A model generated the notes under the pieces. That model saw only the letters and a list, made by a program, of their open reading frames with translations, had not been told where the DNA came from and did no database searches. Below, piece after piece: positions 41,496 through 47,932 of a DNA stretch of 64,000 nucleotides (position 1 is the first letter of the stretch; each line of letters opens with the position of its first letter). The position numbers and the translations under genes are program-made. The DNA lies in NCBI GenBank assembly GCA_963693365.1, contig CAVNZM010000006.1:2170001-2234000 (forward strand). The letters run 5' to 3'. Source of the stretch: Amoebidium appalachense (Eukaryota > Protista > Ichthyosporea).

Positions 41496-44400
41496 ATGGC
41501 GGCAACGGCCAATCTCGAGCACCGCTTGTCCTCTGGTCCCGGAAGCATGTTTCGGCGCATACGCCAGGCGCTGGTCACGCCCCTGCACGCGCCACACGCA
41601 GGGGGCACCCACAGCGACACGGTGCTGTGCCGCAAGGCCAGTCTGGGCCGTGAGCACGTGCAGGGGGCCGGGGGGCTGGTGGCGCACTGTGTGGAGGCAC
41701 TGAGCGACGACCAGCACAAGGACCTCTTTCAGGTGCGCACAGGGGAAGGGGGTTGCTCAGGATCCACGTGAAGCATGGGCACACGGGTTTGGGGGTTGAA
41801 TGGGTGGGCAAGAGGTGTGTGTGTGTGGGGGGGGGGGGGGGGGGGGAGAGGAGAGGGGTGGGGGGAGGGGAGAGGGGCAAAAAGGAGTAATACGCACTGA
41901 ATGGGTGGTCTTTTTTCGTTTCCCCATTCGTAACCAGGAAATACGACCATTGAAGCCTTAACTGTGCTCATGACCATCACTTTGCTGGTCACCCGATTTA
42001 CATGCATCGACTCTCCAGATCTCATCTGACACACGGAATACTGGGCTCTCGTACTTGAGGTTTTTGGGGTTGTCCAGGCACTGCGGACATCTTCCTATAC
42101 GCACGAGGATGCTGCACGTTGATCTCAACCACACTTATACTACGTAGCAATGTGTGCATGTACACAAGCCTCGGACAGACCACACACACACCCCAGTGGC
42201 ACAGTGTGTCTGTTTGTACGCACCCACCCTCATTCTCTCAATACCCACGCACCCGCAGGTGTTCACTGAGCGGCTATGCTCCACCCTGCCCGAGGTCAAG
42301 CTGCTGTACGGCACTGACGGCTATGGCGGTGGGCTGTTGGGCTGCTTTGCCTCGTTCATGGCCCACGTGGTCACGGCCAGTAGACACGGTATCAGCCCCC
42401 AGCAGAGGGCATTACTGCACGAGCTATTTCTGCGCCATAGGCCCTGTGGTGTGAGTGCACTCTATGTGCGCACAGCAGGGGAAGAGCTGGTGGGTGCCCT
42501 TGAGGAGGTGTTGGGGCCAGTGTGGACGAGGGAGTGCAGCGAGGTGTGGACACGTGTCACCATGGCAACCGTGGATGCAATGATTGGCCAGGGCTATCTG
42601 CACTCACAGGGGTTGGGTGTGGAGCCTGACAGTGATGTGTCCGCTGCAGGTGTGTGTGTTTGCCCATAGGTGATGTTCTGTGTGTGTGTGTGTGTGTGTT
42701 TGTGTCACGTGTGTGTGTGTGTGTGTGTGTGTGTGTGTGTGTGTGTATGTGTTTGTGTGTGTGTGTGTGTGTGTGTGTGTGTGTGTATGTGGCTATGATA
42801 CACGACACAAAGAATGTGCCCACCAGCACGTACCCGCACCGCACAGCAAATGCACACATACGCAAGTGCATGATGTGAACCTATGGTGCGCATGCATCCA
42901 CGCAGAGATTGCAAACACACACGTGTGCATGCCCGCGCACCTACGGTGCATGCACGCATGCAGGCAGGCACACACAAATACGACGAGACAACAAACACGC
43001 ACCGTAAGGCACACACCTCCAAACCCAAACAAAAAAAAGACCACCACACACACAGTACTCTACAGTGCATGTGCCTGCGTGCATACACTGCCACAAACGC
43101 ACAACCACAACATGACAGACACACTCGAAAGCTCTTGTGTACAGACATCATACACAAACACAGCTTGCATACAGACACGCAAAATCAGTAAGCGTACAAC
43201 ATTCACACATACACAAGATCCTCCCCCCCCCCCCCCCCCAGCTTCCCCATCCCTGTAACCACGCAGACCATAGATTTAAACACTTACAAGTCCTCCTCAC
43301 ACACACACACACACGCCGCGCGCACACACACGCACGCGCGCTCGCGCACACACCCACACACACACACACACACACACACACACACACACACACACACACA
43401 CACAAACACAAACACACACACACACACACACGCACATGCACACAGACATGGACTCGTGCGCTGACTCGACCAGCAGCATCAACCAGCACAGCGGCACCTC
43501 TGTGGCCCGCAGCACGACATGGGCCAGCCTAGAGGCGCACCTACAGACCATCGAGGTCATGAAACTGAGACTTGAGGATGTATTGAGAGATCCAATACTG
43601 AGGGCCGTGTTTGTGCAGCAGATGAGGGGGCAGGTAGACGACAGCCAGTTGAGACTGCTGGCAGACCTGGATAGGGCTGAGAAGGCGATGGCTGGTGCAC
43701 GGCACAGCAACAGCAATGGGGACAGAGAGAGGTGTGCATACATGAGCCTTTCCCTCCCCCCCCCCTCCTCCCCCCCCCCCCCCTCCCCCCTCCCCCCGCC
43801 ACACACACACACACACACACCCAACACTCACACACACCCCCGAAGTGCCCCTCGATGCTTACATTGCATGTGCTCTACACCACATGTAACATGATGAGTC
43901 TCAAATGATTGCAAGTGTGCCAGATGTATTCTCGTTAGCCTTGTATTCCTATTTGCCTCAGAGCCACACCCTACAAGTTATCGAATACTTACCGAAAACA
44001 AATCACTTCTCATCGATTACTTTTGCATGCACTTTGATCACCCCCCCCCCCCCCCCCTTCCCCCCACCCCCCCACCCCGCCTTCCTTCCCTCACTCCGCC
44101 TTCTCCCCCCCCCCCCCATCCCCCCCCCCATCCCCCCCCCACTCCTCCTCCCTCCTCAACCCACCCCCCATTAAACGAGCTCGTGGCAATCACATACCCA
44201 CCCATTCCTCCAACCCCACGTTTCTAACCCACCCACCAACCAACAACCAATTCACACCACCAACATATACACCACAATAGTCTCCCCACCTCCTACTCCC
44301 AAACACAAACACATACACACAACACGCACGCACACACGCACACAAACACACACACATGCACGCACGCATACACATACGCACACACACACACACACACACA

Positions 44401-47400: not shown

Positions 47401-47932
47401 GTGACCCGTCATCCCCCACTGTCCAGCACAATGTCAGAGACTTTCCGCGGCCTGGCTCAACGTTTTCGGTTTGTGCACTCGGTGAGGGATGAGAAGTACC
47501 GGGGGGGGGGGGGGGGGGGGCAAGGGAACTAAGTAAAGTCTCATTCAATCTTGCCATCCCCTGCAGGCCATCGACCACCCGCAGATCTTCAGCTGTGGGG
47601 ACTGTGCAAAACTGCCAAAGCCAGAGGCCAGGCTGGCCATCAGGGCCGCAGTGCAAGCAAGAACAGTCAGTGCAAACATCAAGGGACTGGCCAGGCATGG
47701 AAGTAGTGCCCCATTGGCCATGCACAAGCCACAGGCAGGCCAGTATCAGATGGTGCTGAGTCTGGGCAGGAGGGAGGGCATACTCTATAGGGGGGACTGG
47801 ACTACGGGGCAGGGCACTGTGGATGTAGGGGAGTGGGTGGGGCACAAGTTCGACTTTGTGCACATGGTGTTGCATTATCTGATCACGGGGGAGGTCAGGG
47901 GGGAGTTGAAGAAGTGGCTGGGATTGGAGTGA
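41496..47932 (+). CDS. Globin + RGS-like + FAD/NAD(P)H oxidoreductase (AIFM2/FSP1/AMID-like) fusion protein, ~788 aa, 7 exons
   Basis: Exons 41496-41732, 42259-42649, 43446-43731, 44530-44695, 45146-45587, 46621-47099 and 47567-47932 (2367 nt, phases consistent). Globin: FTERL...PEVKLLY...LHELFLRHRPCGV...GEELVGALEEVLGPVWTRECSEVW. RGS-like: LEDVLRDPILRAVFVQQM...QLRLLADL...MRKEVDISLDPNTWRGF. Reductase: VLVIGGGFAGL, FDYCVVTTG, VLVVGGGVVGVEMACE, GYVRVGPTLQ, IFSCGD, LSLG. Confidence 0.85.

Follow-up and report, generated by a model that had tools for sequence, protein, structure and literature searches.

A candidate fusion of a globin, an RGS-like segment and an FSP1-like reductase in the ichthyosporean Amoebidium appalachense

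Previous studies have described several proteins in which a globin and a flavin reductase share one chain, and the globin-reductase fusions named in the sections covered of one survey carry FNR-type reductases; the same sections place a tyrosine at position B10 of the distal pocket of flavohaemoglobin (PMC3820574). FSP1 (AIFM2), another flavoprotein, has been investigated chiefly in animals, as a myristoylated suppressor of ferroptosis. As given in the excerpts of two reports considered here, it uses NAD(P)H to reduce quinone or oxygen by way of FAD, with two-electron transfer to quinone preferred (PMC10516921), and it depends on its myristoyl anchor (PMC10643123). RGS domains of protists are freely shuffled among proteins, and some of them are scaffolds rather than GTPase-activating proteins (GAPs), according to the covered part of a 2014 study (PMC3971589). 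Here, we analysed a window of 64,000 nucleotides of Amoebidium appalachense (Ichthyosporea; assembly GCA_963693365.1, contig CAVNZM010000006.1, positions 2,170,001 to 2,234,000 of the forward strand; all positions below are those of the window) and identified a seven-exon gene in which a globin, an RGS-like segment and an FSP1-like reductase are probably joined in one protein.

The seven exons (Table 1) join in frame into 2367 nt, that is 788 amino acids (aa) and a stop, with no internal stop codon, GT at 6/6 donors (all six beginning GTG) and AG at 6/6 acceptors. This agrees with the initial annotation, whose motifs (LFLRHRPCGV, WT.E...W, GGGFAG, GGGVVG and IFSCGD) are all present in the product. 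A stop codon lies in frame 19 codons 5' of the ATG. The fraction of G or C at third codon positions (GC3) is 0.59-0.82 per exon, and all seven exons are open. Chance or artefact as the source of the architecture was ruled out by spliced contigs, described below, together with three exons that all point to FSP1. The gene is real and its architecture is unusual; it is a single gene for which no full-length relative was found.

Sequence comparison gives good support for placing residues ~400-788 closest to FSP1/AIFM2. Exons 5 and 6 scored 30.3 and 58.8 bits against Pfam Pyr_redox_2 (cut-off 26.1), and FSP1 headed the PDB matches of all three reductase exons, in agreement with the two-Rossmann, AIFM2/FSP1-type enzyme proposed at the outset: it took the top 6 of 7 matches for exon 5, the top 4 of 14 for exon 6 (E values of 1e-7 to 4e-7, with trypanothione reductase close behind) and the top 6 of 17 for exon 7 (E values of 0.004-0.02). 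An ESM Atlas search with exon 5 returned generic Pyr_redox_2 clusters, and the last 80 aa searched alone matched nothing. In the alignment, D41, E156, E160, G244, D285 and C286 of FSP1, which are named as functional in the covered part of one report, correspond to D430, E555, E559, G639, D679 and C680, and the equivalent of E164, given there as dispensable, is Leu (PMC10643123). Because the protein begins with Met-Ala, lacking the Gly2 of the myristoylation start MGxxxS, and carries its reductase at the C-terminus, we regard this part as FSP1-like and not as FSP1 proper. By analogy, it would bind FAD and carry out FSP1-type chemistry. A membrane protein was also considered and was rejected on hydropathy, the highest 19-residue value being 1.51, so that no membrane segment was predicted.

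The identification of residues 61-192 as a 3/3, F-family-like globin with an apolar, divergent pocket is likewise well supported, and sequence and fold searches agree on the 3/3 globin with a proximal histidine that had been recognized before. All 32 PDB sequence matches of exon 2 were globins, the best being HGbRL, Vitreoscilla haemoglobin and neuroglobin. A full HMMER search of exon 2 against 1.84 billion representatives returned 30 matches with 24-40% identity, 29 of them containing Pfam Globin. A profile of 10 globins, which were relatives of exon 2 or members of their clusters and were picked without use of helix A, fits residues 61-192 at 76.1 bits, compared with 4.6 bits for the best of 500 shuffles; the alignment spans the exon 1/2 junction and has helices A-H in register. 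The structure model of exon 2 (predicted local distance difference test, pLDDT, 66.3; predicted template modelling score, pTM, 0.53) was built with 10 globin rows and is hence partly circular. It aligned with neuroglobin 2vry at Z 11.9 (root-mean-square deviation (rmsd) 2.5, 110 residues aligned) and with the E. coli flavohaemoglobin Hmp 1gvh at Z 11.4 (rmsd 2.5, 106 aligned), and the rows listed by Foldseek were globins, none of which reached E 0.001.

Helix positions were assigned from the alignment with relatives. His139 occupies F8, where 10/10 relatives have His, and the H-helix Trp is intact; the domain would likely bind haem. Around the haem, B10 is Thr82 (Tyr in 9/10 relatives), E7 is Leu105 (Gln in 7/10), CD1 is Tyr96, still aromatic (Phe in 9/10), E11 is Phe109 and G5 is Val149 (aromatic in 9/10), and the G8 residue is also unusual. 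Tyr B10 and Gln E7 are typical of flavohaemoglobin, in which they hold oxygen. A pocket of Thr B10, Leu E7 and Phe E11 would fit the sensing of nitric oxide (NO), carbon monoxide or redox state better than the holding of oxygen for NO dioxygenation. Intron 1 (41732/42259) splits the globin coding sequence in phase 0, between B7 and B8; common globin intron positions are B12.2 and G7.0, and intron 1 lies at neither.

One alternative, which we consider unlikely, is that the protein is a convergent flavohaemoglobin in which NO or oxygen is detoxified and the globin haem is returned to its reduced state by the FSP1-like domain, the middle segment being a spacer or docking site. A globin and a flavin reductase do share one chain, although ~200 residues lie between the globin and the flavin domain, and the closest globins are of the F family and include flavohaemoglobin domains such as 1gvh, although Tyr B10 and Gln E7 are absent. 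Monodehydroascorbate reductase belongs to the same flavoprotein superfamily as the FSP1-like reductase. Barley haemoglobin can be reduced through that enzyme, whereas the reductases of described globin fusions belong to the FNR family, both as stated in the sections covered of PMC3820574, and FSP1 itself favours two-electron transfer to quinone according to the excerpt considered (PMC10516921). The convergent flavohaemoprotein suggested in the initial annotation is weakened, in its NO-dioxygenase sense, by the pocket and the spacing. A classical flavohaemoglobin was rejected, as the reductase is of the wrong family and starts at about residue 400.

The middle segment, residues ~249-378, is likely to be homologous to RGS domains, as suggested by a comparison made by eye with 20 human RGS domains (alignment in supplementary file 3 of PMC7572916). 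Its N-terminal block follows the human domains over ~42 positions without a gap and keeps their hydrophobic register; several R7, R12 and RZ members share its Asp-Pro (258-259), and Phe265 falls in a conserved aromatic column. The C-terminal block, Leu354-Phe373, also aligns and spans the exon 4/5 junction, and the segment as a whole has ~16 residues more than human RGS domains. The core motifs start at 252 and 354, 102 residues apart; single motifs occurred in 464 and 142 of 100,000 shuffles, respectively, and both at this spacing in 0/100,000 shuffles and 0/42 control proteins, a chance figure that is too favourable, since the motifs were picked post hoc and omit failing positions. A model of a 70-aa fragment of exon 3 showed three helices (pTM 0.34) with no structure match above Z 4.5, and an ESM Atlas search with exon 3 gave no usable match. 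A scan with a degenerate RGS motif found 8 loci, none of which was RGS-like on translation.

Whether such a domain could act on G proteins was judged from the columns that are invariant in the 20 human domains: by eye, 0/11 are identical here and 6/11 are conservative, with the reservation that this yardstick is human only and that protist domains may vary more. The changes fall on the invariant Glu, Glu-Asn, Phe-Trp, Gln, Ser and Arg columns of G-alpha-binding elements (Q272, S276, Q277, L280, L281, R358, T369 and G372). The segment is thus probably a GAP-dead RGS-homology domain, as far as its residues tell, and a canonical GAP is improbable. The same holds for a gas- or redox-gated G-alpha GAP, in which the haem or flavin state would switch the RGS domain and G-protein shut-off would be the output; we give it little credence, since all the invariant G-alpha-binding columns are changed by the human yardstick, even though two blocks retain the RGS register and, by eye, Gln331 sits at the position of RGS4 Asn128 and Asp333 is kept. 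The direct regulation of G proteins put forward initially is weakened by the loss of the invariant residues of GAP-active RGS domains.

Divergence in both the globin and the RGS-like domain could also mean that either or both have become degenerate relics, or plain protein-interaction modules, on an ordinary FSP1-like quinone reductase without gas sensing, which appears quite unlikely. The best globin identity among the 30 matches in 1.84 billion representatives is 40%, and residues at B10, CD1, F5, G5 and G8 are odd, but His F8, the register of helices A-H and the H-helix Trp are intact, and protist globins that are judged functional commonly have a hydrophobic E7, according to the covered part of PMC4101818. 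Similarly, 0/11 invariant RGS residues are kept and the free shuffling of RGS domains among protist proteins (PMC3971589, part covered) would allow for such a module, whereas all 7 exons remain open and GC3-rich.

Read evidence for the joins came from one public run, X1 (0.36 of sampled words, among 3 runs), whose RNA nature is presumed and whose contigs were placed on 40900-44370 only. At junction 2/3, an X1 contig covering 42439-42649 resumes at 43454, the gap being exactly the 8 letters of 43446-43453; the join 42649/43446, named for a check in the initial annotation, is thereby seen spliced. At junction 3/4, a contig covering 43563-43732 has a 129-letter loose end that equals exon 4 (44531-44659). 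Junctions 2/3 and 3/4 are therefore really spliced, and these joins link the middle segment to the globin. No X1 contig covers the non-repeat part of intron 3. We infer the exon 4/5 splice, which would join the reductase to the upstream part, because reading through the exon 4 donor meets a stop after 10 codons, no Met precedes the first Rossmann motif in exon 5, and the first 18 codons of exon 5 (45146-45199) have G or C at the third position in 15/18. Introns 1, 2, 4 and 5 have a G/T-rich start and a C/A-rich end, which makes their ends roughly complementary; the pattern is absent from introns 3 and 6.

Relatives of single exons were sought. None of the 30 HMMER matches of exon 2 contained RGS or Pyr_redox at E 1e-4. 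A word-index search found no longer protein of this kind among 360 (exon 2), 1981 (exon 6) and 61 (residues 36-86 of exon 3) candidates, a weak negative in that ordinary FSP1 relatives were missed too. No relative was confirmed in metagenome contigs (exons 6 and 5) or viral contigs (exon 2), and P0029, examined as a possible relative, aligns over the globin only. Multi-globin proteins occur among the matches (P0001, P0005, P0013, P0014 and P0026), comprising in the order listed 14 tandem globins, globins with an ion-channel domain (a record of the cryptophyte Chroomonas), with cytochrome b5, with ankyrin and with pentapeptide repeats.

In the literature searched, which covered few subscription papers, neither the triple fusion nor a globin on a glutathione-reductase-type flavoprotein was found. 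The main survey of RGS architectures is reportedly that of Anantharaman et al. in 2011. Pairwise combinations involving RGS were tabulated in 2014 as heat-map rows in supplementary figure S6 of PMC3971589, and RGS directly before Pyr_redox_2 is among them; in the parts of this source covered, no row holds all three domains and the main text does not contain 'globin' or 'redox'. This precedent for an RGS domain placed immediately ahead of such a reductase supports the RGS reading and lowers the novelty of the gene (PMC3971589). The earlier claim that no described globin-RGS-AIFM2 fusion was known holds for the triple within the literature searched. As far as our searches reach, the architecture is composed of domain pairs that were tabulated before, none of which was found to have been studied.

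The explanation that we favour, with a probability of roughly 40%, is that the gene encodes a haem-sensor-regulated, FSP1-like NAD(P)H:quinone or oxygen reductase, with a GAP-dead RGS-homology domain as the link by which the sensor controls its activity or location. The product would be one soluble protein of 788 residues, arranged as sensor, linker, helical domain and enzyme. In its FSP1-like flavoprotein, electrons would travel from NAD(P)H via FAD to a quinone or to oxygen, and the N-terminal haem sensor may control this reductase via the probable RGS-homology helical domain, which might replace the missing myristoyl anchor as a targeting or coupling module. The flavin may additionally keep the haem ferrous. 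A bolder proposal, which is rather unlikely in our view, is a second, independent invention of a flavohaemoprotein, in which the globin would be paired with an FSP1-type reductase in place of an FNR-type one. The RGS-homology domain between them would couple the ligand state of the haem, as well as NAD(P)H:quinone electron flow, to signalling by heterotrimeric G proteins, giving a gas-gated enzyme against lipid peroxidation.

Several observations weigh against the regulated-reductase explanation. Exon 2 scores E 3.9e-4 against Pfam Globin, and its 21.3 bits fall just below the cut-off of 22; F5 is Phe136 where 9/10 relatives have Gly, so that haem binding may be poor. Exons 3, 4 and 5 taken singly gave no RGS match in Pfam, NCBIfam or PDB sequence searches, the domain being split over the three; the RGS-like segment seen initially is hence degenerate and without a library match on separate exons, yet probable from its motif register and spacing. 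In the reductase, the FSP1 alignment of exon 7 stops short of K355, for which Lys761 is a candidate equivalent by position only. No whole-protein relative was found, and there is hence no conservation evidence for coupling between the domains.

Other points concern the gene model itself. The stretch on which X1 contigs were placed (40900-44370) gave read support for junctions 2/3 and 3/4 and none for 1/2, and it lies upstream of junctions 4/5 (the attachment of the reductase), 5/6 and 6/7. Moreover, X1 contains unspliced pieces of introns 1 and 2 (41880-42046, 42117-42284 and 42800-43118), one of which crosses the exon 2 acceptor, at depths of 3.4-8.7 versus 5.0-6.7 for the spliced contigs; these pieces possibly represent intron retention, pre-mRNA or DNA. 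Among five acceptors tried near the start of exon 5, those at 45146 and 45200 keep the reductase frame and 3/5 shift it. The model might therefore be partly wrong, with the globin and a partial RGS domain on one transcript and the reductase on another, or with the fusion broken by frequent intron retention or another acceptor. The exon 5 acceptor is indeed the sole TAG among six, and an AG at 45131-45132, which would shift the frame, lies nearer a branch-point-like motif. We nevertheless consider this hardly probable: the C-terminal RGS-like motif needs exon 4 plus the first 13 codons of exon 5, the start of exon 5 is as GC3-rich as noted above and offers no start codon of its own upstream of the Rossmann motif, and intron 4 opens G/T-rich and closes C/A-rich, as introns 1, 2 and 5 do (introns 3 and 6 differ).

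If the favoured explanation is right, the attachment of a globin to an FSP1-like enzyme of the glutathione-reductase type would be a second means of coupling haem to NAD(P)H. A natural FSP1-like enzyme with haem and signalling domains would offer one soluble protein for direct tests of gas or redox regulation, and the RGS-reductase architecture listed in the 2014 table would gain its first function (PMC3971589). These prospects are limited to one gene with no relatives found, an RGS assignment made by motif register and an inferred junction 4/5.

With regard to the neighbourhood, the minus strand at 29938-35932 (with a possible first exon at ~37339-37554) likely holds a basic helix-loop-helix (bHLH)-PAS-PAS gene, arranged head-to-head with the globin-fusion gene. 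Pfam matches, all below cut-off, were HLH at 35789-35932 (E 0.0017), PAS_4/PAS_8 at 35209-35385 and PAS_3/PAS_11 at 31535-31681, and the bHLH piece had no sequence relative in the PDB. The order bHLH-PAS-PAS is that of animal HIF, ARNT and AhR; adjacency alone shows no link between the two genes. Introns of the bHLH-PAS-like gene contain short-period tandem repeats at 32840-33200 and 34200-34620, the first array flipping its orientation near 33140, and introns in the window are repeat-rich in general. The short coding-like piece on the minus strand carries what we take to be a resemblance to a non-LTR (long terminal repeat) reverse transcriptase motif.

Table 1. Positions of the globin-fusion gene and of other features in the window
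Feature	Positions	Strand	Remarks
Probable 5' untranslated region	41072-41495	+	one X1 contig covers 41072-41613 gap-free
Exon 1	41496-41732	+	aa 1-79: ~58-aa leader, basic Ser motif 46-49, then globin helix A
Exon 2	42259-42649	+	aa 80-209: globin helices B-H
Exon 3	43446-43731	+	aa 210-304: Ser/Thr-rich linker, then first helices of RGS-like domain (from ~aa 249)
Exon 4	44530-44695	+	aa 305-360: middle of RGS-like domain
Exon 5	45146-45587	+	aa 361-507: last RGS-like helices (361-~378), FAD-binding Rossmann motif 406-411, Asp430
Exon 6	46621-47099	+	aa 508-667: NAD(P)H-binding domain, GxGxxGxE 548-555, Glu555, Glu559, Gly639
Exon 7	47567-47932	+	aa 668-788: GD-C motif (Asp679, Cys680), FSP1-like C-terminal domain, stop 47930-47932
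Purple-acid-phosphatase-like	5222-6243	+	weak, E 0.094
Peptidase M20	12599-14362	+	
Short coding-like piece	27148-27267	-	probably retroelement remnant
Sugar transporter	50131-52774	-	
MFS (major facilitator superfamily) transporter	56657-59370	+	

Compared with known systems, the reductase has its best solved relative in FSP1/AIFM2 (PDB 9ift, 7xpi, 8yo8 and 8wik), as found for exons 5, 6 and 7, and it keeps the two Rossmann motifs, GxGxxGxE, GD-C and the C-terminal strand motif; unlike FSP1, it stands at the C-terminus of a three-domain protein without a myristoylation start. The flavohaemoglobins (E. coli Hmp 1gvh and R. eutropha FHP 1cqx) have the same general plan, one chain carrying an N-terminal 3/3 globin of the same family and a C-terminal FAD/NAD(P)H reductase, and the F-family single-domain globins (Vitreoscilla haemoglobin, HGbI and HGbRL) share the globin family. 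However, the reductase here is of the glutathione-reductase type and not of the FNR type and follows ~200 residues after the globin, and Thr B10 and Leu E7 replace the Tyr and Gln of flavohaemoglobins and F-family globins. The GAP domains of human RGS1-21 resemble the middle segment in the hydrophobic register of their N- and C-terminal blocks but share 0/11 invariant columns with it, and the segment is more likely a scaffold-type RGS-homology domain, as in the non-GAP members. Fusion of a globin with a flavin reductase chain also occurs in syNOS (PDB 9q05 and 9q0x) and in the truncated-globin nitrate reductase of raphidophytes, although both have other catalytic domains and no RGS-like part. 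The reductase of syNOS is of the FNR type. The nitrate reductase fusion is FNR-type as well, as given in the sections covered of PMC3820574. In the covered part of the 2014 RGS table, the same pairwise combinations occur, with RGS directly before Pyr_redox_2 as proposed here, whereas the globin there follows RGS instead of preceding it (PMC3971589).

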